In this document: positions 4,902 to 62,836 of the stretch, one piece after another
Layout of the letters: each line of letters opens with the position of its first letter
Numbering within the stretch: position 1 is the first letter of the stretch
DNA from: Paraspadella gotoi
Lineage: Eukaryota > Animalia > Chaetognatha
Direction: 5' to 3'
DNA: 64,000 nt
Assembly (NCBI GenBank): GCA_051294375.1
Contig: CM119264.1
Location: 18,503,354 to 18,567,353, forward strand
The notes under the pieces: model-generated
The model's input: only the letters and a program-made list of their open reading frames with translations
The model's database searches: none
Told to the model about the DNA's origin: nothing
Translations under genes and position numbers: made by a program

Positions 4902-6070
4902 AAAGATGCTGAAAAGAGAGAAAGGCTATCGAAAATAAAAAGGATGCAGAACCGATTTGATTTGATCGTAAAAAAGCGAGAAAGATTATGATGAAAGAAG
5001 AAAGGCCAGTGAGAGAGTTAATGAGAAGATTCTATTAAAAAGAGAGGGCAAGAGAGTGTCTAATTTTTGATGCGTTGAGCGTGGCAATGATAAGCGTAAT
5101 TGGTACCAATCAAGTTTGATAAAGACAGAGAAATAAGTCGTGGGGAAAAAAACGTGACTAGGCGAGAGTTTCATTAAGCTTTAAGATGACAATTATCTTA
5201 TAATCATAATCTTATAATTATAATAATGATATAATGATATTATTATGATATATAATGATAATCATATAATTATAGTTATTATATATTTAATTACGTTATG
5301 TTTACTTCTTAAGATAGAAAAAGTCAAATACGAAACCAATTTTATTCAATTACAGATGATTGTTCTCAACATCTACGCTCTTCGATGTCTGCTCATTTTT
5401 CAACCACGCCTCAACTCTCAATATCTTCTCCTCCATGTTTCTCAACTTCTCTTCAATCTTTCAATAACTTCTCGTCAACGTCGCCTCCACCTCGTCTCGA
5501 TCCTCCCTACTTCTTCTTATCACGCGTTTTCGACGATAACGATCTTTTTGCTTATGACGAATGAGCTGCGATGATTGATTAATGTCTCGGGTTAAACGAA
5601 ACCATCGACGTGGGCGTCTCTGTAGGCGACGGCGGCGGCGCTGGCGGCGGCGGTGGCGGCGGCGGCGGTGGCGGCATTAATAAACAAGAGGCCGCGGGAG
5701 AGCGGCCTTGATTACAACCGATAATATGAGAGGAGCATTACTATGTTCATGCAAAACCATAGACGACCGAAGCCGCCTTTCCGCAATCGATGACTTTCTC
5801 GGTACCTCCTTCTCCGCAACTCAGTTGTTTAAACTGTCAAGAAATGACGTAAATATCGTCGAATGTCAGACCGTTGTCATTAAGAGTCGTTTCTCTCCGT
5901 TCCCAGTTTTCAGTCACCTCAGCCTCCGGTTTCCCATTTTTTTTCTTTTTCCGCATTTTTTTCCTTTTTTCTCTTTTTTTTCCTTCTCTTTTCTTCCATC
6001 TTAGTTTCCTTTTTTTTCCCCTGTTTTCCCTTCGACGTCGTTTTCGCGCTGCTTGGCCATGAAATGATTC

Positions 6071-6141
<71 letters not shown>

Positions 6142-8175
6142 CTCGTCTCTCTCTCTCTCTTCTCTCCCCACGTCGCAAGACTCAGCGCTAAATCCACTTT
6201 TCATGTTTTTATTTCTTTTTCCTTTCCATTTTTTCTTCAATTTTTTCTTTTCATTCTCTCTCTCTATCTCTCAATAACTCTTCGTATCAGTGTCTTCTCG
6301 CCCCTGTCCCTCTCTAATTCTTTCCGCTCGCTCTCTCGCTCTTTCCCGCTCTCTGACACTCTATTTCGCTCCTATTATTTCCACCTTTCCCACCTTTTTC
6401 AGATTTTTTCTCTCTTCCCTCTGCCCCACCCTTTTCATTATCTCCCCGGTCTCTTTCTTCCCCTTTCCCCTCCGGCCTCGGGATCCTAGGTGGTTTTTAT
6501 GGTCTTCTGACGCAAACTCAAAGGCAATACCGTCGCTGCTGTCGAAACGGCAGCAGCAGCGGCTGCGGCGGCGGAAGATCCCCATCGTCGCGCTGCGGCC
6601 CAGTAGACGCCGCTGCGAAAACCAACGGCCGCGTCGCCGCGTCGCCGGCCATTCTCGGCGTCGCTCTCGGCTTACTTTCTCCTCTTCTTCTCCCTCCCGC
6701 CCCCCCCCTTCATCCGGCCGTCCACACCGACGGACGACGACCGCCGGCCTTGTGGCGCGCCGTCGAAGAATCCGGCAACGCCCACGGATATCGCGCTCAC
6801 ATCCGGGTGCCAAGTCTCTCCCGACGACTTCACCGGGATACCTGGTTAAAGAAGCGGATGTTATTCCTTCGCTTACACGCTTCCTTCCACGTCGTTTCGG
6901 GGTCGTCGTCGCCTTGGCCGTCTTCGTCGTCGTCGCCCTCAACATATAGCGCCTTTTCTTAATTCCTTCTTTCATACTTTAGGTTTTTTGCCATAAAAAA
7001 TAATTCGGCCTGGACGTTTTTCGTGACGACCGATAAGCCTGACTCTTTTATCCCCATCCCCATCTCTTCCTTCCTCTTTTTTTATTTCCCCTCTACTAAA
7101 TCCCCTTCCGACCCCTTAACCCCTTCCTCTCCCCCCCTCGCCCCCACCCCATTCCCCTTTGAACCGCGCGGCGATTTGCATGCAAATCGCGAAAGCGACG
7201 AACGCGCTACGAGCGAGGCGGCAACGCGTCCGCTTTTTTTTTTACCGCTTCTCTCGCCGCGGTCTCTGTTTAACGCGAATATATGCAAAGAGCTAAACGA
7301 CGATCGCTTTCAATCGCGTCCTTTCGCTTTGGAAATCGCAGACCGCGTCATTTCATCCTACAATAAGCATCGTCTCTAATCGGATCGAGAGAGGAAAGAG
7401 ATGACGACTCGAGCGGGAGGATAATAATTTGCGGATAACCAATATCTTCTTGTCGTAGTCGTCGTCTTCGTCGGAGTTGTGGGAGTTGATGTCGTTATCT
7501 ACTAATCTTGATTCGTTCAGAGGATTCTTGAACTTCATGTCATGTCATGTTCCCTCTGTGTTCCGCCGTCGCGGCATGAGTCTCACAATTTCAGATGGCG
7601 AGGGCCCCCCCACCTCTTTACTGCCCACCAATACCGCCACGGATCGATGAGGGTCCGGCCTCTTAGCGATGACGCTCTCAGCCTCCTCCTCCACTTTCCC
7701 TTCTCCTCCTCCTCCTCCAACGATGGTCATCTCGTCTTTGCTTTTTTCTCTTTCTCTCGGTCTTCGCCATCGAGCATCATGGATTTTGCACCGTTTGCAG
7801 AAAGGCACCAACATCGATGATAGAGAACCAGAGCGCGAGCGGCGAACACGACGAAATGGCTTGCGGAAATCTGCGAAGAAACAAAAAATAGGGGATAAAG
7901 GGATAAAGGAAGAATATGGAGAAAAGGAAAGGGAAAAGGGAAAGGGAAAAGGGAAAAGGGAAAAGGGAAAAGACAGAGGGTGAAAAAAGTGAAGGGAAGA
8001 TGAAGAGGTGAAGCATTGAGAAGAAACAAAGTTAACAATTTGAAATGAGCTCTTTTTTAAACACAAAGCTGGAGGTTTCTCAGTAGAGAGAAATGTCGAT
8101 AGATTTAAACATGTGAGATAAAGTCAGTGAAGAAGTCCAAAGAGATGAAGATAAAAAGAGTTCTAACAGATCGAG
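4902..8175. repeat. Copy B of the 1-3495 duplication
   Basis: Colinear with 1-3495 and supplies sequence across the N gaps of copy A. Confidence 0.95.
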
Positions 8176-36923: not shown

Positions 36924-39900
36924 ATGGAGTCCGATAAGATGGACTCGACCGAAGGACGCCTAGAGATGGGACGACCTCAGACGTCCCCGCATCCGTCTTC
37001 GCTACATCAACCGCAGTTGGAGCGTCGACCGCAATCACAACAACAAAACCAACAACGAAAAGTTCCTCGGGAGGACGAGGAAAAAGTTTTTGTGACAAAA
37101 CGTCGAAGGATGGATTCCGCGTCGGATCTTGACGGAGAAGTTGCGTCCCTGGATTACGAGAAAACGGAATTGACGTCAAGAAATGACGTCGAAGACGAAG
37201 ATTTTTCGAGAGATGACGATCGATGGAAAAACCAACAGGTGATGACGCGGAAGGGGCCGACGTCACGGATTCGGATTACGTAGGCGTGGAAATAAATTCA
37301 GTGACGTCACCAAACTTAGAGTCAAATCCGCACGAGACGCCGCGAGTGGAGTCAAGATCAGAAAACTTGGAAGGGAAATCTGTAAACTCAGGAGCGGAAT
37401 CGAAAAAACTTGGAAGCGGAAACTGAGGATTCGGAAGCGGAAAAAAGAACAGAATTCGTCCGCCCACGCAAACGCAATGGAAACGACAATCGAATCCAAG
37501 TTGACGATCGACGCCGATGTCAACGCTCAGTCCTACGTCAACGCCCACGACGATCACGGCATAGATGACGATGACGACGCGACGAACGATAATGACAAAT
37601 CATTCTGTGATGACATTTCTCGTCAAAACCGTGATAACGACGAGATCAGGACTAATGTAACGACGGGAGAATCGAACGACGACGAAGAGGAAAGCCAAAG
37701 ACATGGAGGGGCGATGTCACCGATGAAGTCAACAGGATTGAACCCGAAGTCGTGCCCGCCGAGTCTTACAAGGTAAACAATCTTTATTTCATTCCCAATT
37801 TCAACGAAATATTTTTGGTTGTAAGCCTCGAAGGAAAGTTTCATAGTTTTTAAAAAAATACAAGTGTGATAACTTTTCCCATAAAATCAATAAGAAAATG
37901 GAACCTTTCTCCCCGACTTCGCAGATCGCGTCGTTGACAAAGCGGAACCCGAGGATGGAATCGAACAATCTGATCCGGAAACCAGCGTGATCCAGAAACC
38001 GCATTTAGGATGTACAAATATGAACGCCGTATCTGAAAAAAGTGGAAACGGCGAAAGTTATGATCACAACGACGGATTCGAAGCAAAAACAGAAGATAAA
38101 ATTGACATCGAAATCGAAAATGTCGGAGGCGACAGCGAAAAACTTGCTCATCAATTGACCCATGACAACGACGATGCCAAAGAAGAAATTAACGACGAAG
38201 TTGACGAAATCAACGACGACGTGAAAGACGAAGTCGACGAGGAAATCAGCGAGCGAGTCAGCGATGAAGTCAAAGAACCATCAACCGGTGAAAACGACGA
38301 TGATCCCGTCAATTCGGCCGCGGACGCTTTCGCTCTCGACGTCGCAGACCGCGCCTCTTACGGCGAGATTTCCAATCCGGAATACATCGATTTCGACGAG
38401 GCCATCCAGAGTCGCGTCCTGAAGGAAGTCTCCGTCACCGAAGGAGCCGCTTCGTCCGAGGAGAATCTCGAAGCTTCGGATCCAGAGGCGCTCGAGAGAG
38501 TCGACGTCGACGAGTCGCTCGACCGCGAGGGGACGCGGAGTATTGAGGCAGACGACGGCGCCGCTATTGGCGTAGCCGTTGACGACGAAGCGGGCACCAA
38601 TGACGCAAGCAAAGACGATGACAACGACGACGACTACGTTGAAAGCGAAGGTGAGATTATTTTCTCTAAAATATTTAACGACATTCCTTGTTTTTCTTTT
38701 CTTTTTATTTTCTTTTTCTTTTCTTTTTCTTTTCTTTTTCTTTTTCTTTTCTTTTTCTTTTCTTTTTCTTTTCTTTTTCTTTTCTTTTTCCTTTTTTTCC
38801 CTTTTTCTTTTCATCGTTTCTCGCCCCTTATCAGGTGTGGAGGAATCCGAAGAGGACAGCGAACCCGAGGAAAATCCCAGCGAAGAGGAAATGGAGGAAG
38901 GAAATCGGGAAGAAGGAGAGGAAGAGGAAGAAATGGAGGAAGGGGAACAGGAAGCCTCTCGGAGGAAGACGAGAAAGGTAGGTCCAATTTTGAATATTAA
39001 TGGAAAAGTTTAGAAGCTTCACATTGCCGTAGTCATTACTCATTAGTCAAACAATCTTCACTTATCTTTATCACTTTCTCAGTTTCAGTTTCCATGCCCT
39101 CGACATCTGAAGATCCGTCCACGTCGGGGGGAATAAAAGAGTCGCGTCCACTGAGGGCGTGCCTCAAGCGGAGGGTGGAATCCCCCGTCGAAGAAGGTCG
39201 GTTGACGCTTCACGAATAGATTATTTATACATTTTTTTTCATTTTTAAATTTTGACATTTGTTTTCGTCATCAGGTTCGACGGCGAAGAAAAAGCGACGC
39301 ATCAACTTTTCCGGCGTCACGGTTTATTATTTTCGTCGAAAACAGGGATTCACGTGCGTCCCGAGTCAGGGTGGATCCACTTTGGGTGAGTAGAGGAGAT
39401 ATCATCACAAGAACCATCACGTCTGATTGCTTGAGAATACGTAGAGTTCTTTAATGGCAAACCAGTGGTTTTATCTTTTCTTATTAATCGACCAGGAATG
39501 TCTAAGCGACACGTTGAGAAGGAGAGCTTCGACGTCCAAGAATACTTGGAGCTTCAGCGATCCATCCACAAGCAAATCTTGTTGGAGCAAAAGATGCAAG
39601 CGAGATTGGCGGCGCAGCAAAGGCGCCAGGAGAAAATGGCGGCCAAGCAGAGACGGGCCATCGTAAATGGACAAAACTGGTGAGTCCGTCGACAACAACA
39701 ACAACAACGAACAACGAACAACGAACAACGAACAACGAACAACGAACAACGAACAAAATCTCTCTGACCAACTATCCCAATCCTTTCAGCGCCGAGAGCG
39801 GAGACTCCGAGTCCGACCTCTCGTCCTCCGACCAATTCTCCGACGACGATTGGGACGACGAGGATCTCGACGTGGACGCCTACTACTTCCTGCAACCGGT

Positions 39901-42900
39901 TCCGGCGCGCCAACGTCGCTACCTCCTCCGCCGGTCCGGCATCCGGAAGATCGATCCAGTCGAGAAGCTCAAATGCCGAGAAATCCGACAGAGTCGAGAA
40001 GTCTGCGGATGCGACTGCAAGGGAGTCTGCAATCCCGAGACTTGCATCTGCGCGCAGAGTAAGTTGGCGGGCGGATGGGTTAGGCGTTTATGAAAAAGAC
40101 TGACTGACTGGATGAATGTAAATATGAAAACTTAAAGAAAACCAAAAAAGTTTAACTTGTTCTTTTTCTTTTAAAGTTCACCATTCTGAAATCATTATCG
40201 AAAGTAATAACAAAATCATTTCATTTTCTATTTAATTTCTATTGGTAGCCATTGTGTTAATCCTTTCGGCTTCGTTGAGTATAGAGATTTAACAAAGTTT
40301 GGAAATGTTTTCGTCAACGATTTTTTATTAATAAAAAATCGTTGACGAAAACATTTCCAAACTTTGTTAAATTAAATATTTAATTTCTATATAATATATA
40401 CATATCATGATCAATTTATTTTAATTATCCCCTATCCCCCAGATCACATAAAATGCCAGGTGGACCGAATGTCGTTCCCCTGCGGCTGCACGAAGGACGG
40501 ATGCGGCAACGTCAACGGTCGCATTGAGTTCAACCCGGTCCGCGTTCGCACCCACTTCATCCACACTCTCATGAGGATGGAGCTGGAGCAGAAGCGGCAG
40601 CACCACGCGGCCCTCGCCGCCGCCAACATGGCCGCCGCCGCCGTTGAGGCCGCTGCCGCCGCTGCCGCCGCTACTTCAGTCTCTCAGCATCAACGGGGCA
40701 TAGGTGGCGTGGGCGCCGGCGCGGGAGGCTACGTGGTCGGTGGAACCGGCGCCGCCCATTCCATGGTGCCGCATCATCAACCGGGGCTGGCCTCCATCAA
40801 CCCTCTGCCGAGAAAGACGGTTACTTTCGCCGACGACGTTGTCGACAAATCCATGGAAAATGTGGTCGGAGGCGGAAGCGGCGCCGCTGCCGCCAACTCG
40901 CTCGTCGACGGCACCGGCCTCTCCTTGTCTTACTCCAACTCGCACCATCCTTTTCCTCACCTCCACCAACAGCAGCAAATGTTGGCAGCGAATCACTCGG
41001 CAGCGGCGTTGAACCACTCTTACGCGAGACTCCACTCTTCGGCAAAACCTTTCATCGAACCGGCCCACCACCATTACAACGCGTTCGCCAATAACGGCGC
41101 CGGCTACCACCACCCGGGTTCCTCGACGCCGCTCATCTATCCGCCGACTCACGCGGCGCGCTTTGACGCCCCGGCAATGAGCCTGATAGGCGCGCCGCCT
41201 GATGTTAGCAGCGCCCACATTGGGTTTTCCGATACGCCCACAAATCTCAGCACGACGCCGCACCATCCCAACGCCGCTGCCTCCTCAATGGTTCCGGGAC
41301 TTTCGGAGTGCGGCGCCGATGGAGCCACGCCCTTCGCCGCGCATTCCATGACGTTCGCCGACTCGGAGGCTTCGGAGCTCAACCTCGCGACGCTCTCTGC
41401 CAACGAGTTGACTTCCTCTTTCGATACGTTCGACAAGAGGATCCTAGATCGAGACGACAATGTCTCCTCCCATCACCTTCATCACCATCACCTTCACCAT
41501 CAACACCACCAGCAACGACAACAGCTTCACCTCCATCATCAACAACAGCAGCTTTCGCATCAACAGCCACCACTTCACCAGCAAGAACACGATCTTCGCC
41601 TCCAACATCACACGCTTCATCGCGATCTCTCTCAAGAGGGGAACGATTCTTTCGCTAACGAAGATCTTCGTCGGGTCGCATCCAGAGGGCGGATCGAAGA
41701 GGAAGACGCGTTCGGTTCGCGGGCGTCGACTTTGGACGCGGGCGGACGATTTGAGGACTCTGAAAACGACGACGTCGTCGTCGGAGTCGCCGACGCGACG
41801 ACGCAGCGCGCCAACGACGACGAGGCGACGGCGACGACCGATGGCGCTCTCGACTACAGATCCGGGGTCAGGATCGACGAGCATCAATCTACCCAAGACC
41901 TAGGGGACGACGGCTTCAGACTCGCGCCCATCGCCGGCCTTTTCGACCGAACAACGCGGGACCCGAGGACGACGACGACGACGACGACCTCGTCGATAGA
42001 ATCTAGTCAAACTCCTTCGACGCCACCGACGACGAACTGCTCGAGCCATCCTGAACAAACTCTTTCCTCGCCATCGTCGATATCTGCCTCCCTCGATTCC
42101 TCTTCAACTTTCTCGTCCAGCGCGGACGCCGCTAACGCGACGATCGACTCCGCTTCGATATCTTCGTCGCCCTCATCCTCGGCCGTGTTCTCCACCACGA
42201 TATCCGCCCGATGTACCGACCAAGCTGCGGCCACCCCGACCGACATGAAAGATCCGACTTCTGATCAACCCGACCCTCGATCGAATCAGTTGGAAGATTT
42301 CGTCGACGAAGATTTCGACGTCGGCGAAGCGAAAGAGGATTTTGGGGGAGAATCGCAGACCGAGGGATTCTCAGAGTCGGCGAAGCTAGAATTTGCCGAG
42401 GAACCCGATGAAGCCGAAAGTCACTCGAAATCTACGCACGAAGCTCAGACCGAAATCCGACGAAGCGCTCAGCCCGACGCCGGGTCGGACTCTCACTCAG
42501 ACGCAATCCACGACGCCGGATCCGAAAACCTGCGACTCAGTTTCGCCGTCGGCTCCTCCGCGACCAACGACGACGGGGACATTGACGAAGACGCCGTCCT
42601 TTTGCCCGACCCCGGATTCCCCGGTTCTCCGAGAATGTCGCCGCCGACGGCCGGCTTGAACGGCGCTTCCAGCGTCGAGTCCGATTCCGGCTTCCGATCG
42701 GCGGACGGAAGCGACACCGACGACTCCGACGTGGGGTCGCCCGATTTGGGCGTCGTCGTTGGAGGCGCGAAGGACGTCGAATCCGGCGACAAGGGAGACG
42801 ACGAAACGGGAGAGATTCGAGTCGCAGACGGCGACGACTTGCAGTCATCGTTTCGCGACAACAAGGGCGACGACGCCGGCGCCGCTTCGGATCCAAGCTG

Positions 42901-43024
42901 CCGAGAAGAGGACGCCGGAAATGGTCGCGTCGCAGGATGCGCGTCAAAAGCGACGTCGACACCGTTGGAGGCTTCGTTCGGCGAGATCATTAAAAAGTCC
43001 ATCGTTGAGGCGGCGTCGGCTTGA
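36924..43024 (+). CDS. CSRNP: Cysteine/serine-rich nuclear protein (CSRNP/Axud1 family transcription factor), multi-exon
   Basis: Exons: ~36924-37772 (acidic, several indel frameshifts), 37925-38650, 38835-38977, 39083-39196, 39275-39385, 39496-39679, 39790-40058, 40443-43024, all GT-AG. The spliced core reads [39 protein letters not shown]...[25 protein letters not shown]...[71 protein letters not shown], the CSRNP_N signature. A long low-complexity C-terminus ends [15 protein letters not shown]. Confidence 0.95.
40287..40372. repeat. Perfect 86-bp palindrome (43-bp arms, no spacer) in last CSRNP intron
   Basis: ATTTAACAAAGTTTGGAAATGTTTTCGTCAACGATTTTTTATT|AATAAAAAATCGTTGACGAAAACATTTCCAAACTTTGTTAAAT. 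Confidence 0.95.
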
Positions 43025-46000: not shown

Positions 46001-46651
46001 GCGATGGCTGATGCGAGCAAAGTACAGTACCCTAGATGCAAACAGAGATCGCTCGAGAAATTGCGTTTCTAATCGGCGGCTGCGGAAAACGAAAAAAGAC
46101 GATTACTGCCAGAGTTTTAGAGAAAAAAAATTAGCACGGATTTTACAGTTTTTTTAAATCTGCTGTTTTAATTGATAATCGACAAGGTCGACATTTGGAT
46201 TGGATTTGAAATTTTTTTATATTGTTTTAAAGATAGAAATTTATGTATCGTTTCTTAATATTCGAAAAATTCATACCGATGTTATCAGCATCGCCTTATT
46301 TAGTCCGAGGTCAATTTCGAGTCCATCTTTTTACCATCCAAGTTGTCATAACGATCACGACTCTCCTCTGTTTTTTTTTTTTGTTTTTTTTGTCTAATTC
46401 ATTTCATCTTTCTCTTCATTTTCTTTCTCGTTTTCGGTGACGAGATTCTCTCTGCAGAATGAGGATCGGTCATCGAGAGACGAGACCTTTTCATCTGAGA
46501 GGGAAAAAAAAGTCGACAAATAGAAAAAAAAATGACTAACTGGAAATATAGCGAAGAAAAAAAAAAGTCGGGAAGGCGAAACCGATGCGACATTTTCTTC
46601 CATTTTCAAAAAAAAAATTAAATAATTAAACAATTTGAAACTACAGAGGCA

Positions 46652-49034
<2,383 letters not shown>

Positions 49035-49949
49035 ACTTTCCATCTTCTGTTTCTTGCTCTTTCTCTCTCTGTGATCTAAGATCGTTATTTGGAAATCAAA
49101 TCCACCAGATAGGTTTTCAATGTTTTTATTTAGGCGCTAAAATTGTTTGATATTGTTGAAATAGCATGGTCAATTGGTTATAAGCGGCATGTTTTAGTTA
49201 TCCTCGTTTAATTTCAACTATTCTTGCATGCGAAGGAAAAAACTAACCTCCGTGTATTAAAATATTAAATAGGAATTTTTGTGGAGAAGTTTACAATTTA
49301 ATTTATTAGTACGTAGTGACATAACTTGGTGTTTTTTTTTTTCAAAATATTAATATAGTTAGGTTTTTAGTGATTATTAAAGTAAATTCGATAGTTTATT
49401 GAAAATGTGTCCAAAGAACTCACTGTCTTATATTAGTAGACCGCCTGTAGCCGACGTTTTGTCGTGATCTCACTGAATGCCTAGCGTCCAAGCTTGCGCG
49501 GCTTTTACCTTCTGTACATTACAACAAAAAAATTTTCTTTAAATATTGTTTATCATACTATAAAAATATAAAAATATACAAAAATATATATTTTTTTTAT
49601 TTTGAAATTTCATTACAGTTTTACCTTTGGTCACCATCTCAACTTTTCCGCAAAATAAGATTTAATTTTTTCTCCAGCTTTTTAATTTAGCTATCACTTG
49701 CTTAACATTCAGGATTGTGACCGGATTTCTCATTTTTATCGAAAATTAGATTTTTGCTTCTTTATAAAAAAAATAAATTTTTACAAAAAAAATAAAAAGT
49801 TAGCAATAGTTAGGAAAAAAATAATGTAATCAATAATCATTTTAAAAGTCAATTATTATGTCTTCCTCATTGTCTTATTGAATAAGTTTTCCTTGTCACT
49901 TTTGTTTGTTTTTTGTTTTTTGTTTTTTTCAGTTTTTCTTCATGCGTTG

Positions 49950-50607
49950 TTATTTCTTCGCCCACATCCGTATTTTTCTCAATCGACAATTTTCTTCCAG
50001 GCATCTGAGGCCCCAGCATCGACCGGGTTTCGGGATATCTTCGACTTGAAGCGTGTGTACGTTGCTCCTCAGGCCTTTTGTTTCGACCATTGAAACTGTT
50101 TTGAAATTGTCGCAGCCTCTGTCGTCCATGAGATCGCCTCTCACAAGTTCCAGCTTGACAGGATAGTTCTTAGTTCCGAGCGTCCAGCCGAAACGGACGA
50201 CTGCGACCTCAGTCTTGAGGGCGTAATACAGCACCTCTCCTTCGTTGAGATCTGGAGGCTCGATGGTGCATTTTCGCCATTGGAATTCGAATGTGCAATT
50301 GCAACGGTCGCAGTTCTTTTTTTTTAAATCGCAGCTTTTGGTAATGCAGTTTTGTCCCAGCAAACCGGGAGTTCCTCCTCTGAAGTTGACCTCTAAAAAA
50401 AAATTTAAATTTAATTTTGGGATGATTAAACTAGAAATGTTAACATGGGACTTCACGAAATTAAGGTCAATCTGGACTTCTGGTCTTACCAGCGAAGTCA
50501 TCACGACCAACCACCAACAAGGTCATATCGTATTCATGAACGTAGAAATGCTGAATGCTCTCGCTTTTCGCCAAATATAGCCAAAAAAGTCCCAAAAATA
50601 ACTTCAT
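49950..50607 (-). CDS. Small secreted Cys-rich protein, paralogue B (186 aa), probable discoidin/F5-8C-like beta-sandwich
   Basis: Exon 1 50607-50490 (MKLFLGLFWLYLAKSES..., signal-like). Phase-1 intron gtaag...tttttag. Exon 2 50392-49950 (EVNFRGG...VLYYALKTEVAVVRFGWT...NYPVKLELVRG...KPGRCWGLRCLE...IRMWAKK). The fold is inferred from motif spacing only. Confidence 0.75.
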
Positions 50608-50758
50608 ATTCTAGAATACGATGGGTAAAATATCCTTCTGTAATTTTAAAAAAATGTCAAACGATGTACGCATAAATTTAATCGTTAAATTAGTACGACT
50701 TTGTTAAGGCTATGTATATTGTATAATATTAGTTCCGCCGTACTTCATAAAAACTAAA

Positions 50759-51443
50759 CTAGTTTATTTTCTTCCACATTTGCACCATTCTAAAATGACA
50801 AATAGATAAACCTCCATTCTCCATGCACTTCAAGCCCCAGCAACGGCTTGGCTTACTGGAATTGGTCACGTTTTGTAAACATGTTTTACATTGTGATACT
50901 TTATCCTTATCAAAGATTTGCACTTCCGTAAAACTTTTGCACTTTCCTTGTTTCCATTCGCCTCTCATCAGTTTTACGCGCTTGGGAACGTTTTTCCATT
51001 TATTGAACGTGAACCCGAAAGCGACGACAACGATTTTTTCCTCGAAGTAATGAAAAAGAATGTCATTGACGCAGACATTTTGAAACGGTTTGTCGCATCC
51101 GACAGGTTTTACGGTTCCGAATGCGCAACGCGGTTGGTCAATTTTGCAGTCTATCACCGTACCAGAACTTCCTCGCTCGAAGTCCACTTCTCGCGTTTGG
51201 ACGACTTCGTCGCTGCGGTCATGACGTTTGATTTCAAATTCTGCTGACGATTTTAATGTTTTCAAAATGTATAAGTTCTTAAATCATTTCGCGTCGCTTC
51301 TTACCTTCACTGACTGTTTCTCGACGAATGACGATCAAAGCGAATTCGCCTGATTTCGATTCGTAAGCTACCGAATTCACTCCACTTGTTTCTCGACAGA
51401 AGAGAAACGTGATAATCAAAATGATGTAAAAGCTAGTACGCAT
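50759..51443 (-). CDS. Small secreted Cys-rich protein, paralogue A (~207 aa), probable discoidin/F5-8C-like beta-sandwich
   Basis: Exon 1 51443-51305 (MRTSFYIILIITFLFCRETSG, signal peptide). Phase-1 intron gtaag...cagcag. Exon 2 51243/51240-50759 (EVDFERG...ILFHYFEEKIVVVAFGFT...NVPKRVKLMRG...KPSRCWGLKCME...FRMVQMWKK). Clearly aligns with paralogue B. Confidence 0.75.
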
Positions 51444-51927: not shown

Positions 51928-52568
51928 TTGATGATAAACATGATATTTTATAGTCAAGACATGGTGCCTTCTATTCGATTATTCCGATAAAAATGAGTGT
52001 TTAAAAAAAAAATAAAACTTGGCGTTCTGGCAACGCTTCGTCGTAATTGTCAATCCGTAATATGACGCTACTTGCAATTACGTAGCGGATCGATTAAAAC
52101 CTAAACCTAATCATTTCTCTGTTTCCTTCATATTAGATTTTTTAGCAGTTTAAATAACAATTGGTTTTTCCAATTTCGTAATAAAAGAGCTGCGCAATAA
52201 CGCTATATTTTACGCTTCTTTTGCACTATTCCGTTTTCTTTAGTATGAACCAAAAAAATACAGAATTTTTTCCGGCAATGCTTGTGAAAATAAAAATGGG
52301 AAACTGGATCAAAGCTCAAGAATGTTTTCTTTATGCAACCGTCTTCCAGTTCTGTATAAAAACGAATCCGCTCATTTTTTCTACAATTCCTAGCTATTGG
52401 TAAAATTTATATCTTTTTTTCCTCGTTTGGCGTCTTTTCATCAAAGGCATGTTTCCTTAAATTTTCCAAAAGTTTATTTATTAAAAAGAATAATTAAATT
52501 TCTGAAATCTGTTTTACAATTACCGCCATCGATATAATGAATTATATTTTTTTTCTTCAGTCGACATC

Positions 52569-52703
52569 ATGATGAGCTTCATGGGAATGATGAGACGACG
52601 CCGTGGAATGCGGTCGTGTCGCGGGGGCGGGGGCGGCGGCGGGCGGCGGTGGCGCCGACGTGGCGGCGGTCGATGCCGAGGAATGTGCCCACTCTTTATG
52701 TGA
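52569..52703 (+). CDS. 44-aa Met/Arg/Gly-rich micropeptide MMSFMGMMRRRRGMRSCRGGGGGGGRRWRRRGGGRCRGMCPLFM
   Basis: GC-rich ORF in AT-rich DNA, directly after the acceptor tttttttcttcag| (52560). TATAAAAA at 52355, possible donor at ~52400, ATTAAA at ~52854. DNA and peptide are homologous to the 59977-60066 ORF. Confidence 0.65.
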   Translation: MMSFMGMMRRRRGMRSCRGGGGGGGRRWRRRGGGRCRGMCPLFM

Positions 52704-54198: not shown

Positions 54199-54499
54199 AT
54201 GGCGCTGACTGCGAGGAGTCTCGCGGTGATTTGTGTCTGCGCGGCGGTGATTATTTCTTCACTTAGTCAATCGACGGAGGCCAAGCGACCAAGGTAGGAG
54301 GCTGGTTTAAAAGTTAGTGAAAACTGAAATGCTTTGTAAACTGTAGATACAAGGTGATTTAAAAATGTTAGGCGATCGAATGGTGTGGCGAGAGATTTGA
54401 TTTGACTTGATTAAATTTATTCAGTTGAAAATTATCACAATACTTAAATTTTTAACAAACGTGAGAGGCAGAGAAAAAGAGAGAGAGAGAGATAGAGAT

Positions 54500-54547
<48 letters not shown>

Positions 54548-56112
54548 TGATAGAAAATAAGTGAGAGTGAGAGAAACAGAGAGAAACATAAAGAGTCAGC
54601 CTTTGTCGGTATAATGCACTTTCATAATTTAATTGTGAGATTTGTATACCCCTTTGCTTTGCTTCTAGGTTACGCCGAATTAAAAAGTCAGCCCCGGTCA
54701 TAGGTAAGTTATCTGTAAACGTTTTCGTACAAACCATAATGATTGATGGCATCAAAGAGCCTTCATAATTCTGAGATCTTTCTTCCTGGCGGTAAAGTCT
54801 CTCATAGAGGTGCTGCGCCCATTCATACAATGACACTTTGAACGTCTCCTTCTGTCTCCTCCAAATCTCAAGGATCCCTCGATCTCACGGTCGAAGGGCA
54901 AGGGGCCAAAACATTTTCGAATTAATTTTTTTAATATAAAAAATGAGAGACAGCGATCGAAAGATCTCAGCAAATGATAAAAAAGGAATAAGAATAAATG
55001 ATAACGACCTTGATTTATAAACTAAAGGGTCTCTTCTTTCCACTCGAACTCGATCAAAAGGCCATCACGAATGTCACGTGATCCCAAAATAGCAACAATT
55101 TGATATTTTCAACGAATGTCATAGATTTTTCCTCAAAGATGTCCACATATGAATATTTTTTTACAGTATTGAAATTTATAATGTCGTTAGAAAGAATTGT
55201 TCGTTTGTCCCTCCGTGAATGACCCCCGTAAAAGTTCGGGATATAATTTTTTTTATTTCTTGCTAAACAATTTTTGCCTTTTTGCCTTCCCTTCTTTAAA
55301 ATTTCCACTTCAGACGACTACGACGTTGACCTGACGGGCAATTGCCCTCCCCCGCCCGGCGGACCCCACACTTTGGCCACATGCAGCGGGGACGAGTTTT
55401 TCCGTTCCTGCTCGGTCAAGTGCGACTCCGGGTGGGTCTTCCCCGAGCGGACCAACAACTTCGCCTTCAACGTCGAGTGCGACGAGACGGAGGGTGTGTG
55501 GAAGGCCAACGGGGAAAACGCCGCCGTCCCGTTATGCAAAGGTAATTTCGGTGGAAAGAAAGAAAGAAAGGAAAGGGAAACAAGTTTGAGGCAAACAATG
55601 TCGGATCTGCCTACGATAATTAATTAATTAATTGATTAATTAATTAATTAATAGAATTAATTAATTAATTAATAGATTATTAATTAATTAATTAATTTAA
55701 TAGATTAATTATAATTTAATATTCAGCTTGTCATCATCGATGTCCTTAAAATTGAGTCAGGACAGTTATTAAATGTTTTGTTTACATTTTTAAAAAGCAA
55801 ACAAATATCCTCTATGTATCGAGCCAGGCGGGCAAAGCCCGTCCTGTCTAGATTTTTTTTCGGTTTTAGCTTTCGGTCTCGCTTTTTTGCAATCATGGCT
55901 TCTTGAAAGTGTGATATCATAGGGAGTTGAATTTTCATATATGGCTCTAATCATCAAGATCTTTAAAATTCTCATGTTTTCATATCAATATTGGTATTTG
56001 TTTATGTTTTTATTTACATTACATTATTATATGTCGCTCTCTCTCTCTCTCTTTTTCTCCGTCACTGGCTTCTTCTAAAAACGAGTTCCGGCTCTGCAGC
56101 GTCTGTCCAGCT

Positions 56113-56159
<47 letters not shown>

Positions 56160-56692
56160 CTCATTTTTTTTTACAAAAAATTTTTTAGATATAATGTGGG
56201 TTCACTAATGTAAAAAACGATCGCGCCGCGAACAGGGCGCGAACCCGGGTCCTTTGGGTAGAGAAATAGCTCACGCTACGTGCGGCGCCATAAGTACTGT
56301 GATTCTTTAACGAGTAAAGGGGCTGTAGAACTTCTCTCTCTCTCTCTCTCTTTTAATTATTATATATCGCTTTTCTCTTTCTCTTTTTCTCTGCAGCGGC
56401 TGTCTCTCTCTCTCTCTCTTTTTTTCTCTCTCTCTCTGTCTCTCTGTGTGTGTCCTGTCCCTATCTGTCCGATCTTTTTGCGTGATCGTTTTGTTTTTTG
56501 AAAAATTCTGATTATTTTTTTCCTTCTAAAAACTTTTTATTATTTGCCATTTATTCCGCGCTTTTTTTCAATACAAATCCCATATTTTCATCCGAGATTT
56601 TCGTGGATTTATTCTCTTTCTTTCTTCTCTCTCTCTCTCTCTTTCTCTCCTCTCTCTTTCTTTCTCTCTCTCTCTTCTCTCTTCTCTCTCGT

Positions 56693-56737
<45 letters not shown>

Positions 56738-59700
56738 TTTCACTCATACACGCATTTGTTTGTTTTATTGACTATCATCGCATCCAAATGAATGGACAAT
56801 CATCGCATCAATGAATGACAATCATCGCATCACGTGAATGACATCATCACAGCAGTGAATGACTATCATCGCATCAATAATTGATTATCATCGAATCAAT
56901 AATCAATTCCTATTACATCAATAAATTACTATTACATCAATCAATTAGTATTACCTCAAATCAATTACTAGTACATCAACAATTCGTTATCGCATGATTC
57001 ATTCGTTTTTTTTCCCGGTTTTTTTTCATTAATTTTCTATGATAGTGGGCTCTGGCTCGATCTTGAGTTCTTTTAAAGTTTTTTATTTTAATGTCTCCTT
57101 CTCTCTCTCCTCTCTCTCTCTCACTCTCGTCTCTTCTCTCTCCTTCCTCTCTCTCTCCTCTCTCTCTTCTCTCTCTCTCTCTCGTCTTCTCCTCTCTCTC
57201 TCTCTCTCTTTTTCTATGCAATAAGCGACGATCCTTATGCTTTTAAGATTTTTTTAACTTGCATCATTTTTCAACTTGCATCATTTTTTTCAACTTGCAT
57301 TCCGGTCAAAACTTTATATCTAGCTTCTTCACTCACTTTCCTACCGGCTCACAAAAATTTCATCTCATATCTATCATGGGTTAAAATAAATAAAAAGATT
57401 CAAGTAAATGTGACTCATATTTTTTTTCATTTAAACTCATTTCCACTGGTTACGTTTCCAACTTGAAACTTTATTATCAAGCTTCGTCATAAGTTTTCCT
57501 ACCCACACACAAAATTTCAACTCAATCTATCCATCCAATATTGATTAATAGGAGTATTTATTGGTTAAAATAAGTAAAAAGATTTTAGTAAATTCGACTT
57601 ATGTTTTTTCCATTTAAACTAATTTCCACTCACACGATTCCATCGAAATTTTATATCCAGCTTTATCACACACTTTCCTACCCAACACCAAAATTTTAAT
57701 TCCAATCCAACCAGCCATCACGAGTATGGAGCTTTTTTGCTAAGATGGGACGGATGGACGGATTGATTGACTAAATTAATTAATTATTGATTAATTTTAT
57801 TTACTAATTGATTAATTAACTGATTAATTATTTGATTTATTAATACATCCTGCAGATACATTTAATATAAAAGGAAAAAGAAGCATAATCAATTAGTAAA
57901 ACATGTTTTTTGTTTTTTTCCATTTAAACTCATTTCCACTCAAACTATTCCATCGAAACTTGTATTCCTGTTTCAATCACACACTTTCCTACCCACATAC
58001 AAAATTCCAGGTCAATCAGCCCATCCACTCATGAGCAATTGGTGTTCAAATAGTGAATATATTTTTTTTGTTTTTTCCATTTAAACTCATTTCCACTCGG
58101 ACGATTCCATCGAAACTTAATATCCAGCTCAATCACACACTTACCTATCCACACACAAAATTTTCATAAATCCATCCATCCAATCACGAGTAATTGGTGT
58201 TTTTTGCTAAGGTGGGACGGACGGACGGACGGACGGACGACGGACGGACGGAACGGACGGACGGACGGACGGACGGACGGGTACGGACGGACGGAACGGA
58301 CGGACGGACGGAACGGACGGACGACGAACGACGGGACGGACATTCATTTTTTTGCATAATTTATCATAATTCGATGTTCTGAAACATGATAAATGTGTGC
58401 CCTGACAATATTGGAGGGGGCGGACCGACGGACCGAAAAAGTGAGTTATAAAAAGTGAGTTATAGAGTCGGGATCTGCTGATAAGCAGATCCGACTAAAA
58501 AGGAAAAAAAGAAAAAAGAAAAAAGAAAAAAAGAAAAAAAAGAAAAAAAAAAAAAAAGCAAAATAGCAAAATAGCAAAATAGAAAATAGAAAAAATAGAA
58601 AAATAGAAAAATAGAACATAGAAACAATAGAAAAAAAAGAAATAGAAAAATAGAAAAAAAGAAAAACAAAAACCAATTAAGTTGATCTATTTACAGCCGT
58701 GTGCCCAATCGGCTGTCAAAACGGCGGCACCTGCACGGCTCCTGACGTTTGCACATGCCCGCCGGAATGGACCGGCAAGGACTGTGGAACGCCTGTCCCG
58801 AGGCTCTGCCCGAGGATTTCGGTAAATTTCGTTCGCTGGTTCGAAGCTATTTGGCTGGGAGACAAATGTGTCACGTGTATTTTTTTTTCCTTTTCCCATT
58901 CGAGTTAGTTTTCCTGTTTCTCTCTCGATTTTCCCCCCTCTCTAATCGCCTCCTTCTCCGCCCTCTCATTCTACAGACTCCCATCAACTCCGTCATGACG
59001 GCCCAGTCTGGCCACAAGGTGGGCGCCCGCGCCATCGCCGCCTGCGACCCGGGCTTCTTCTTCCCCAACGGGAAGAGCGTGCTCACTTACGAGTGCGTTA
59101 GCAAATCCACGGGCGGAGAAGGCGTCTGGAAGCCCGTCGAAGGGCAGGGAGACGGGCTGCCCGTCGGAAAGTTCCCGGACAAGTGCGAGAAAGGTGAGCG
59201 CGCTTGGAGATTTTGAAGAAGAAATGAGAAACGTATGTAAAGGAGAGAAGAGATAAGAAGATAGTTCTGGAAGTTGAGATAGGATAAAAGAAGAGAAGAA
59301 AAGAGAAGAGAAGAGAAAAGAACAGAAGAGAAGAGAAGACAAGAGAATAATAAGAAAAGGGTAGAGAAATAAAAAGGAATGGAAGAAAAAAAAAGAAGAA
59401 TAATAAAAAAGGGAGAAAAGAAGAAAATGAGAAAAACTGAAGAGAAGAAAGTTGTAATACAAAAAAAAGGAAGTGAAGATAAGAAAAAAAAAGTTAAAAA
59501 TAAACAAGCATGGGTGGTCTTCAAAGAATATTTGACTATTAATAACTACTACTTAAAATCTAAAACTGTAATCAATTTTATTGACTGATTAAAAATGAAT
59601 TAAGAAGCATTTTTTTATCTATAATTTAATTATATTGATTGATAAGAGCAAATGAAGAAGCAACAGAAGCGAACTAGAGACACAAAAGTTACCAAAAATA

Positions 59701-61112
59701 AATTTAAAAAAATAATTTAAAAACATTTTGGAAGCTAGATGACGAGTCGTGTCGTTTTTGAGGTACAAAAGAATATTCTCAAGCTTCTTTCTTCGCAGTT
59801 TATTCTTGACAAAGTTCCTACGACTTCTTATTTTATGTTCATTGTTCACATTCTCCATGAAGATGTGAGAATCGTTCACGGAAAATTAGTTTTAGAATGA
59901 AATCTTCTCTCTCGATTCTCGGCTTGTTGCGTTGCTCTTTTGTCTTCTGTATTTCTTTACTGTTGCAAGATGTCGCTCACATCATGCCGCAGCCGCCGCC
60001 GCCGCCGCCGCCTCGACGCCCGCGGCGTCTTCCTCCACGACGGCGTCGTCCCATCATTCCCATCATGGTTCTGTGATAAAAAGGAAGGGAAACAAAATGG
60101 CATTCAAAGCGATGATGAGCTGAGTGAGGATTTCAATTTTTTTTTATCTCCAACTCAATTTCAAGATAAAACAAAAAAGTTTATAATTAACTTTATTTTA
60201 AGTCAAAAGAAATAATAGTATTTTAAAAACTTTAACAGCATTTCAAGCGAAGTTGAACCATGTATGTAAATTTGACTTACCTGAAGGTTTTTCGAGTTGG
60301 TTGGTAAAAACGATTAAGTTTTCTTGGTCGAATCTCACGTTTTATTTCGAACCATTTCTCGTCCCTTTATATACCCTCTCCCTGTTTGGTTCATTGAATT
60401 TAGTTTCACCGAATAAACATTCCTGCTTATACAGGCGATCTCAAGGAAAACAAATGAAGATTTGGTTCTTGCAATCTTGCAATATCTTTGTCTCTTACCT
60501 GTGTTTTCGTAACCTAAAGTCTAGTTTCCTTTTCATTTCTTTATCTACGTGTATTATATTTTTACGAAAATGAATTTATTTGTATTATACTGTTTGCGCA
60601 TTTGGCGGAATAGATTTTTAATTGTCGAGGATAATCTAGATTACGTCATTGAAAGATTATGAGATAAGGGCAAGAAGTCGAGCTTCGTAAATATGTTTAT
60701 ATTTTATGCTGTACGGTGTAGTATTAATACTTTACGTAAGAACCAGTACAAATTTGGTTTTTAAAAGTGAAATTATTCTTTTTTTTATCTCAGCTTTCTG
60801 CGATCCTCCCTGTATGAACGGCGGTGTCTGCGTCGGGGCGGACCGGTGTCGCTGCCCAGATGGTTTTCGCGGCCCCAAATGCCAGTTTGCGCTTCAGGAC
60901 TGCGAGTGTCCAGTGGCGCCAAGAAACGGTTCCGTCCTCAAACACTTTTCTGATGATGGAGAAGTCACCTTCTGTTCGTTTCAATGCGCAGCAGGGTTCG
61001 TGCCAAGTGGGATCAACACGGTAAGATCGACGGGAAGGACAAGGATTGGATGGGTATGGGGGCAAGAAGAAAAGAGTCTGAAGAATGGAGCTGGGAGATC
61101 CAGTCTCTCTCT

Positions 61113-61178
<66 letters not shown>

Positions 61179-62836
61179 CTTTTTATTTCTCACTATTATT
61201 TTTTTTTTCATTAAACCAGGAATTTAACTGTAGAGAGGATGGAAAATGGCATCCTGCAATTAGCAACTTTCCACGATGTGATCGGATAACGTCTACAACC
61301 ACGACAACGACGACAAGGCCCCCAACGCCCCCAACGCCGTCGACCCCGACTCCTCCAAAGTCGGACGGCTATTGCGCCACGTGGTGTGGCGCCAATTACC
61401 GCACTTTCGACGCGAAACGCTACAGCTTCAACGGGAAATGTCGCTATGTTTTGGCCAAGGACTGCGTCGACGAATCTTTCGAGATTCAAATCGTCAACGA
61501 TCCTCTGTGAGTTCTTGTGGTTGTTGTTATTCTTGTGGTTGTTGTTTCTTCTTTTAGACTTGTTCACTTATTTTCCTTCCACTAGATGCGACGAGGGTTC
61601 CGATTGTCACCGGGCCTTGGTGATCAAGGCCGGCTCAACCACGTTGCACCTTGAATACTCCGAGGGCCTCGTCAGGGTCGCCAACCACATCAGTACCTAC
61701 AGCATTCCTTATATAGACAACAATATGGAGATTCACGAGGTGCGACTTCGCTAAATATTTTTTAATTTACAAATTCATAACCTTGAAAGTCATACATTAT
61801 TTAATAAGCAATCATTAACGACATCAATCAGGTATAGTCAATTTTTTTAACAGGTCGGATCAATGGTCGAAGTATCGGATGATTTAGGATTCCAAATTAT
61901 ATGGGACAAGAAAGAATTTGTATCGATTCAATTGACGAATGAAAACCTCAGGTGAGGGCAGAGATTTTTCTCTCGTAATGACAAAAGAGCCGTGAATTAA
62001 TTTCAACAACTTTTAAAGTAATTTGTTTTGCTTATTTTTTTTCTAATAAAATTATTTCCTTAATTGATGTCCTGCATCAGATCAAAGATGTGCGGACTTT
62101 GCGGCAACTTCGATGGTTTGTCCAGCAACGACTTTAAGACGATGGATGGAGCCGACGCTCCGACCGCCATCGATTACGGCGTCTCTTGCAAAGTTCCTGG
62201 AAATAAAGGTCAGATAGTACAAATAAGAACTTTTAAAGTAAAATATTAAGTGTTTTAGCCAAATTTCGTTTATTTTCTCATTAGATTGTGACGATAAGGC
62301 GGTGGCTTCTTACTGCAACGACGACAAACGTGCACAAGCGAGAAAAGTTTGCGACAATCTTAAAGGCGGAAACTTCACAAGTAAGCCAGTCGTCATTGCT
62401 TCGGGTGATGTTTCTAAAACTTTTTACCTTCTCACTTTTTTTTCCAGAATGCAACGACATTGTCTCCCCTGATAATTTCATGGAGACCTGCATCGAGTCT
62501 CACTGTCACTATGGCGACGACGGGCGAAATCTTTTCGCCGCCTGCTGCGCCTTTGAGGCTTACGTCCGAGAGTGCTCGAGAAAAGGAGGCAAAGTACCCG
62601 ACGAAAGCTCATGGAGAAACGAGGACTTTTGCCGTAAGTAATAAAAGTTTTTTATTAAAAAAAAAAACATGTTCCAATATTTTAGGAAAACTGTTAGTGA
62701 ACTTCTGAATTCACTCCTTTGTTCTCCGCAGCGGGCAAGTGTCCGTCGGGTCAAATCTACGATGACTGCGGATCGAACTGCGTTGCAACTTGCGACAACC
62801 AGAACAGTAAATGCAGCAACACTGAATGCGTTGAAG
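54199..62836 (+). CDS. Hemolectin/hemocytin-like (vWF-related) secreted protein, 5' part; continues beyond window
   Basis: Phase-consistent GT-AG exons: 54199-54293 (signal MALTARSLAVICVCAAVIISSLSQSTEA), 54669-54703, 55314-55541 (Sushi-like), 58697-58821 (EGF), 58977-59193 (Sushi-like), 60794-61020 (EGF CDPPCMNGGVC...CPDGFRGPKCQ), 61220-61506 (Thr/Pro linker, VWD start YRTFD...C.YVL), 61586-61739, 61854-61951, 62081-62208 (MCGLCGNFDG), 62285-62380, 62448-62633 (C8), 62732-62836 (TIL). Confidence 0.88.
56222..56296 (-). repeat. tRNA-derived SINE-like head
   Basis: The minus strand has an A-box-like TGGCGCCGCACGTAGCG and a B-box-like CCCGGGTTCGCGCCC; no convincing cloverleaf. Confidence 0.35.
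57220..58500. mobile_element. Non-autonomous Helitron/Helentron-like (DINE-1-like) element
   Basis: Four to five diverged ~180-bp internal repeats (catttaaactcatttccact...tccatcgaaactt...cactttcctacccacac.caaaattt) and (GGAC)n tracts at ~57748 and 58214-58340. A terminal hairpin AGTCGGGATCTGCT-gata-AGCAGATCCGACT (58466-58496) precedes an A-run. The left boundary is uncertain. Confidence 0.6.
59977..60066 (-). CDS. 29-aa Met/Arg/Gly-rich micropeptide MMGMMGRRRRGGRRRGRRGGGGGGGCGMM, nested antisense in hemolectin intron
   Basis: Minus-strand layout: TATATAAAG (60373-60365); UTR exon ending CAG|gtaagt (60281); intron 60280-60071 ending ctttttatcacag|; aaccATG start; AATAAA at 59804-59799. Paralogous to 52569-52703. 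Confidence 0.72.
   Translation of the reverse strand: MMGMMGRRRRGGRRRGRRGGGGGGGCGMM
60365..60373 (-). promoter_or_regulatory. TATA box of nested micropeptide gene
   Basis: TATATAAAG lies ~85-90 bp upstream of a consensus donor, implying a ~55-60-nt first exon. Confidence 0.55.

Follow-up and report, generated by a model that had tools for sequence, protein, structure and literature searches.

Protamines are described as Arg-clustered proteins of 30–106 amino acids (aa) with an isoelectric point (pI) of at least 12, often cleaved from precursors (PMC12216123). Their charge density is reported, for the amniotes, as 0.53–0.61 per residue (PMC13756071), and Ser phosphorylation is reported to be important in their deposition (PMC11607694). 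Elsewhere, the smallest unit reported to have an effect at the nuclear membrane is a construct that joins a nuclear localization signal (NLS) to a CaaX end (PMC2947476), and an animal peptide resembling the a-factor of fungi has been suggested (PMC3362292, citing Ricardo and Lehmann 2009). For the most part, the nested internal genes described in Drosophila lie antisense to their hosts, and often they are young duplicates with a testis bias (PMC5174743), a base rate that comes from another lineage. Here, we analyze a stretch of 64,000 nucleotides (nt) from Paraspadella gotoi (contig CM119264.1; hereafter the window) with two short, related genes: copy A, whose open reading frame (ORF) of 29 codons lies antisense within an intron of a gene coding for VWD and C8 domains (the host gene), and copy B, which lies upstream of that gene (Table 1). 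Judged by the Drosophila genes, the antisense nesting of copy A is ordinary. We hold with high confidence that copy A is an actual gene, and probably a coding one. The two copies are an orphan, lineage-restricted family, of two members as counted within the window, whose function can only be inferred; we tentatively favor protamine-like, nucleic-acid-condensing peptides that would most plausibly act as sperm nuclear proteins.

An earlier note on this DNA had placed a minus-strand TATA box, a short exon, an intron, an aaccATG start, a 29-codon ORF and an AATAAA signal at this locus, and all of them are present where it put them. The donor of copy A reads AG/GTAAGT at 60281/60280, and its acceptor, a pyrimidine tract followed by CAG, ends at 60071; AACC then precedes the ATG at 60066, and the stop codon occupies 59977–59979. 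The spliced RNA has no ATG before position 70, and its first ATG opens the 29-aa ORF. GC content is 71% in the ORF and 28% and 37% in the flanks, with a step at both ORF borders. The peptide is made up of 13 Gly, 9 Arg, 6 Met and 1 Cys, in agreement with the four residue types noted before, and by its share of Arg plus Gly the ORF ranks first among the 574 ATG-initiated ORFs of at least 15 aa in the window. It uses four Arg codons and three Gly codons, and the mixed Arg codons rule out a microsatellite reading of the ORF. Loosely defined, such gene anatomy is by itself weak evidence and not rare in the window: a loose filter for a TATA box plus a donor is passed by 5 of the 44 short ORFs adjacent to an acceptor. 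Copy A stands above chance because its exact splice joint appears in an assembled contig of public reads and because a second copy is alike solely in the ORF.

The joint comes from run X1, a single public run from one study, which we guess to be RNA and which has no tissue or library on record. Of 63 sampled words, X1 contains a share of 0.54, whereas almost none occur in two further runs of that study, which come from other organisms. The comparison of reads spanned positions 60016–60560, leaving the Gly run, stop codon and 3′ untranslated region (UTR) of copy A outside the directly covered span. Within it, the first X1 contig (208 nt, depth 21.6) starts at 60345, 28 nt downstream of the TATA box, spans exon 1 and then passes directly from 60281 to 60070, with the 210 nt between them left out; this is exactly the junction that had been predicted from the sequence, seen in one of the three runs compared. 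The contigs carry no information on strand, start or level, and the skipped stretch, which is without cover, has CT..AC ends on the plus strand, that is, GT..AG on the minus strand. If colinear, this contig would end at 59928, past the copy A stop codon, and the 3′ UTR is probably present in X1, as a word share of 0.55 would be expected with it and 0.33 from the two pieces seen. Runs X2 and X3 have no cover over 60016–60560, an absence that proves nothing. It is formally possible that the joint stems from an intron-less DNA copy, but the 5′ end of the contig adjoining the TATA box argues for RNA. A second X1 contig (60318–60488, depth 3.3), with one T>C at 60421, runs unspliced across the copy A TATA box and may represent host pre-mRNA, DNA or a longer start; another strong minus-strand donor lies near ~60499.

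Within the window, copy B is the top non-self match of copy A (score 75; runner-up 63), and a degenerate pattern search recovered both copies with 0 mismatches and three other places with 3. The gene is, as claimed earlier, stand-alone, spliced and nested antisense, here in an intron of 1,600 nt, but it is not single, having a paralog (52569–52703) upstream of the host. The copy B ORF lies 1.5 kb upstream of the host ATG and ~7 kb from copy A, with its ATG 8 nt past the predicted acceptor, and codes for 13 Arg, 13 Gly, 8 Met, 3 Cys and two Ser (pI 12). Both peptides begin with a Met-rich stretch, carry clusters of Arg and a run of Gly and have a Cys near the C-terminal end; all basic residues are Arg, and Lys, acidic residues and a leader are absent. 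By composition, these short peptides are disordered. The ORF alignment score of 75 was matched by none of 500 shuffles, and the remaining parts are at chance level (promoter 184/500, exon 1 498/500, intron 361/500 and 3′ UTR 32/500 shuffles). This limitation of the likeness to the ORF argues for selection on the coding part and, together with the open frame, the Arg/Gly/Met make-up, the acceptor-adjacent ATG and the ATG-TGA end that both copies keep across a 45-nt length difference, argues for a coding family. The 24-nt core that they share has a single base difference, which changes an amino acid, and zero synonymous differences; hence, part of this likeness may be due to gene conversion or to an element acting at the nucleotide level. 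A further Arg-rich ORF, of 32 aa at 5582–5680, lies in a GGC/GGT repeat and is without the anatomy of the two copies.

Table 1. Positions of the two copies, the host gene and associated features within the window
Feature	Position	Strand	Basis
Copy A TATA box TATATAA	60367..60373	-	sequence; X1 contig begins 28 nt further down
Copy A exon 1, non-coding, ATG-free	60281..60345	-	covered by X1 contig 1
Copy A intron, 210 nt, GT..AG	60071..60280	-	joint 60070/60281 in X1 contig, zero cover inside
Copy A ORF, 29 aa, pI 12	59977..60066	-	sequence and ORF listing
Copy A Arg core, residues 7-18, Arg 9/12	60013..60048	-	sequence
Copy A C-terminal CGMM, CaaX-type end	59980..59991	-	sequence; predictors and yeast screen data from the literature
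Copy A poly(A) signal AATAAA, use inferred	59799..59804	-	sequence; X1 word share 0.54 fits expected 0.55
C/EBP/PAR-bZIP-like sites upstream of copy A, five	60505..60739		motif picked post hoc
Copy B TATA box TATAAAA, predicted	52355..52361	+	sequence
Copy B 5′ UTR intron, predicted, weak donor/strong acceptor	52400..52560	+	sequence-based prediction only
Copy B ORF, 44 aa, C-terminal CPLFM	52569..52703	+	ORF listing and sequence
Copy B candidate poly(A) signal ATTAAA	52854..52859	+	sequence
C/EBP/PAR-bZIP-like sites upstream of copy B, four	52078..52338		motif picked post hoc
Core of 24 nt common to both copies, 23/24 identical	B 52581..52604; A 60040-60063	B +; A -	alignment
Host gene, part: EGF-like, weak sushi, VWD, C8 exons; may extend further	54199..62641	+	Pfam, ORFs
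Host-gene intron, 1,600 nt, containing copy A antisense	59194..60793	+	open join when removed
CSRNP gene, CSRNP_N E 7e-35, long low-complexity last exon	39518-43024	+	Pfam

Homolog searches, all of which are weak tests for low-complexity peptides, gave an exact look-up with none of 4 sequences matched, a word search with the A/B alignment with 0 of 2563 candidates at E ≤ 10 (candidate lengths of 15–77 aa only), a profile search of 1.84 billion representatives with 0 at E ≤ 0.001, no usable match for copy B in the ESM Atlas and 0 loci in a metagenome DNA scan. One PDB match at E 1 was dismissed as chance. A second metagenome DNA scan, with a pattern fitted to copy A alone, returned 3 loci, each of them within an open frame of 271–409 codons and with a GC content of 51–58%; these were rejected as unrelated. 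None of 4 peptide motifs of the copies was found in the literature searched.

The earlier note had offered a prenylated cationic peptide, a protamine-like sperm protein or a leaderless antimicrobial peptide, and among these options the protamine-like one appears to be the best fit to both copies. The peptides, of 29 and 44 aa and with a pI of 12.0, have the size, pI and Arg clusters described for protamines, copy A being one residue below the size range. If translated from its first ATG, the spliced RNA would give a short leaderless Arg/Gly/Met peptide that could enter the nucleus through its small size and Arg clusters; there, the Arg clusters would neutralize the charge of DNA, with Gly as flexible spacers, leading to condensation, and the Met/Cys ends might serve in cross-linking or trimming. 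Farnesylation at the CGMM end of copy A would then be a side effect or a copy-specific membrane tether. The peptides may work in a protamine-like manner without being classed as protamines.

Several features weigh against this reading. Pfam, a weak test for peptides of low complexity, returned 0 families at E ≤ 10 for both peptides and hence no sequence link to any protamine family. The charge density, 0.31 in copy A and 0.30 in copy B, is about half of that in the amniotes, though a trimmed copy A, with its 12-residue core of 75% Arg, could come nearer to it. Copy A has neither Ser nor Thr, and Gly plus Met exceed Arg in the two peptides. To our knowledge, neither a run of 7 Gly nor Met-rich ends are protamine features. 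Conservation is highest in the Met-rich N-terminal core and extends there even to synonymous sites, which a role through charge only does not explain. Finally, the upstream clusters look C/EBP/PAR-like rather than like a full cAMP response element, which speaks against a germline role.

These clusters are among the points that favor a possible, if rather unlikely, alternative, in which the peptides would be polycations of somatic cells, whether secretory, epidermal or defence cells, and regulated together with the gel-forming host protein. There, they might act within the cell as structural or RGG-type RNA-binding peptides or, if released by cell rupture, as antimicrobials or cationic partners of mucus, clot or glue. 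The five sites upstream of copy A are the highest count of any 415-nt window and four lie upstream of copy B, whereas AT-rich windows have 0.68 on average; moreover, copy A sits inside the VWD/C8 host gene and copy B a short way before it. Loricrin-type structural genes likewise have one non-coding and one coding exon and code for Gly-rich, Cys-bearing leaderless products. However, the motif was picked post hoc, and a second consensus gave a rarity of only 9% for the region upstream of copy A. A rare 7-mer is common to random window pairs in 176 of 374 trials, the rare promoter k-mers shared by the copies are not above control, and the sites could equally serve the host gene. Nesting, furthermore, does not mean common function (PMC5174743). 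As for secretion, neither a signal peptide nor a pro-region is present, nor was a hydrophobic stretch seen on inspection of the 29-aa ORF of copy A. We consider it improbable that the transcript is non-coding or the gene young and functionless, with the ORF incidental or kept alike by gene conversion. The core without synonymous change would suit conversion or a nucleotide-level element, and the copy A RNA has a fold z of -4.0 relative to dinucleotide shuffles; yet codons explain this fold (607 of 1000 synonymous permutations are as stable), and the retained frame, make-up, ATG position and end of the two copies, despite their length gap, speak for coding. We reject a structured RNA in view of these permutations, the lack of a fold in copy B and the lack of an Rfam match over either copy. 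Still more far-fetched would be a role of the Met/Cys-rich ends in Cu(I) binding or as a sink for oxidants, the Arg core only positioning the peptide on nucleic acid or membranes. Met makes up 21% of copy A and 18% of copy B, with the MxxM/MxM clusters that copper transporters carry, and the Met-rich start is the best-kept part, but stacked in-frame ATGs may just secure initiation.

We judge a main role as a farnesylated, membrane-anchored basic peptide to be unlikely. Its variants are a plasma-membrane peptide like K-Ras4B, an inner-nuclear-membrane peptide with NLS plus CaaX like lamin or Kugelkern, in keeping with the action of the NLS-CaaX construct on the nuclear membrane (PMC2947476), and an exported lipopeptide like a-factor. 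Copy A has a Cys at -4 with acceptable a1, a2 and X residues, as judged from data on the yeast enzyme in another protein context. CGMM is listed as prenylated by 3 of 4 predictors and as cleaved by 2 of 2 (PMC9231725). In a yeast Ydj1 screen, its enrichment is given as 1.49, next to 1.61 for the wild-type CASQ and 1.05 for CVIM, with a heat-map score of 3.84 for a cut-off of 3 (PMC10320760). If translated and meeting the enzyme, copy A would thus probably be farnesylated on CGMM. In permutations of its residues, the sole Cys falls at -4 in 3.6% and a full good CaaX arises in 0.1%, the latter figure ignoring that GMM is a repeated unit here; both copies also end in Cys…Met. On the other side, passing the screen is weak evidence because most CXXX ends support growth in the authors' own reading of the all-CXXX screen, and the Ras-type score is middling (8.3 versus 19.4 for CVIM; PMC10320760). 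The Met residues at a2 and X of copy A are explained by GMM being a repeated unit of these peptides, and its Cys lies 7 Gly away from the basic tract. Copy B, with Cys at -5 and -9 and the end CPLFM, has none at -4 and no CaaX, so the family as a whole does not share the motif. Farnesylation of five-residue ends does occur, but Pro is absent among the residues reported there as tolerated after Cys (PMC11121372), and CPLFM as such an end is doubtful. The boldest version, a long shot, would make copy A a farnesylated protamine-like peptide of 29 residues that gives shape to the nucleus by tethering chromatin, as it condenses, to the inner nuclear membrane, with copy B as an unanchored or disulfide-linked partner; it would be the smallest stand-alone prenylated protein of animals.

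The host gene has Pfam matches to VWD (E 5e-9), C8 (E 2e-14) and EGF-like domains, and a sushi match (E 0.04) below the cut-off. These domains fit the VWD-C8 gel-forming family (hemolectin/VWF/mucin-like), so the "hemolectin" intron of the earlier note holds at the level of domains. The lineage part of that name fared less well. The protein of the neighboring CSRNP gene matches many animals at a roughly equal level. In a tree of 72 rows (the window protein and 71 of 120 hits, namely the first 67 plus four further ones chosen by name), it sits on a long branch that joins neither the starred arthropod group nor the starred chordate group; its nearest neighbors are Owenia, Lingula and Tubulanus, without firm support. 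The likely source is thus a spiralian invertebrate. With this placement outside the arthropods, "hemolectin" and "hemocyte" serve as domain-level labels only. A host-gene intron holds tandem arrays of 22-nt (56769–56984) and 19-nt (57380–58180) units, and inspection by eye also shows several divergent copies of a longer unit that is AT-rich. Elsewhere in the window, a plus-strand gene with LRR_8 repeats (46622–49150; Pfam E 2e-61) has a Cys-rich PAN/apple-like exon before it and a likely transmembrane stretch after it, both seen by eye. Two long minus-strand ORFs at 49950–51283 (183 and 174 aa) without a Pfam match share a Cys-rich 'KP.RCWGL.C.E' stretch, which suggests an internal repeat or a tandem pair. 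Near-identical blocks (93–100%) at 185–1994 and 5083–6790, spaced by ~4.9 kb amid N gaps, could reflect either a tandem duplication or haplotypes that were left uncollapsed; the Arg-rich 32-aa ORF mentioned above falls within this region.

Genes this small and of such low complexity escape annotation and homology search; copy A, with exact splice support and a paralog, is a concrete case of an orphan micropeptide family from a little-sampled invertebrate lineage. Should the protamine-like role be true, it would widen the known chemistry of sperm DNA packing to Gly/Met-rich peptides of half the usual charge. If the farnesylation of copy A is purposeful, it would provide a natural minimal lipid-anchored animal peptide, with a bearing on nuclear shaping and on the suggested a-factor-like peptides of animals.

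Among known systems, K-Ras4B resembles copy A in that a farnesylatable C-a-a-M end comes after a basic stretch. Its stretch, however, is Lys-rich and directly before the CaaX (PMC11121372), whereas that of copy A is Arg-only and set off by 7 Gly; copy A also has no folded domain and a paralog without CaaX. Thus, of the claim of prenylation through a polybasic tract and C-a-a-M, the usable end stands on the yeast data and the "K-Ras4B-type" label does not. The tails of B-type lamins and Drosophila Kugelkern likewise combine a basic cluster with CaaX. These are large proteins, and the minimal unit itself comes from a GFP fusion that was engineered and has low activity (PMC2947476), whereas copy A is a predicted natural protein of 29 aa, with the motif in one of two copies. 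Like fungal a-factor-type peptides, copy A is very short, leaderless, CaaX-ended and coded by its own gene; it differs in being strongly cationic and Gly-rich, with no sign of N-terminal processing or export. We know of no a-factor-like peptide identified in animals. The Gly-/Arg-rich antimicrobial peptides of invertebrates are similarly small, cationic and Gly-rich, but the two peptides here lack their signal peptide or pro-region and a Pfam match. With protamines, both copies share a size near the low end, a pI of 12, Arg clusters, the absence of acidic residues, the presence of Cys and an existence as fast-changing small paralogs.
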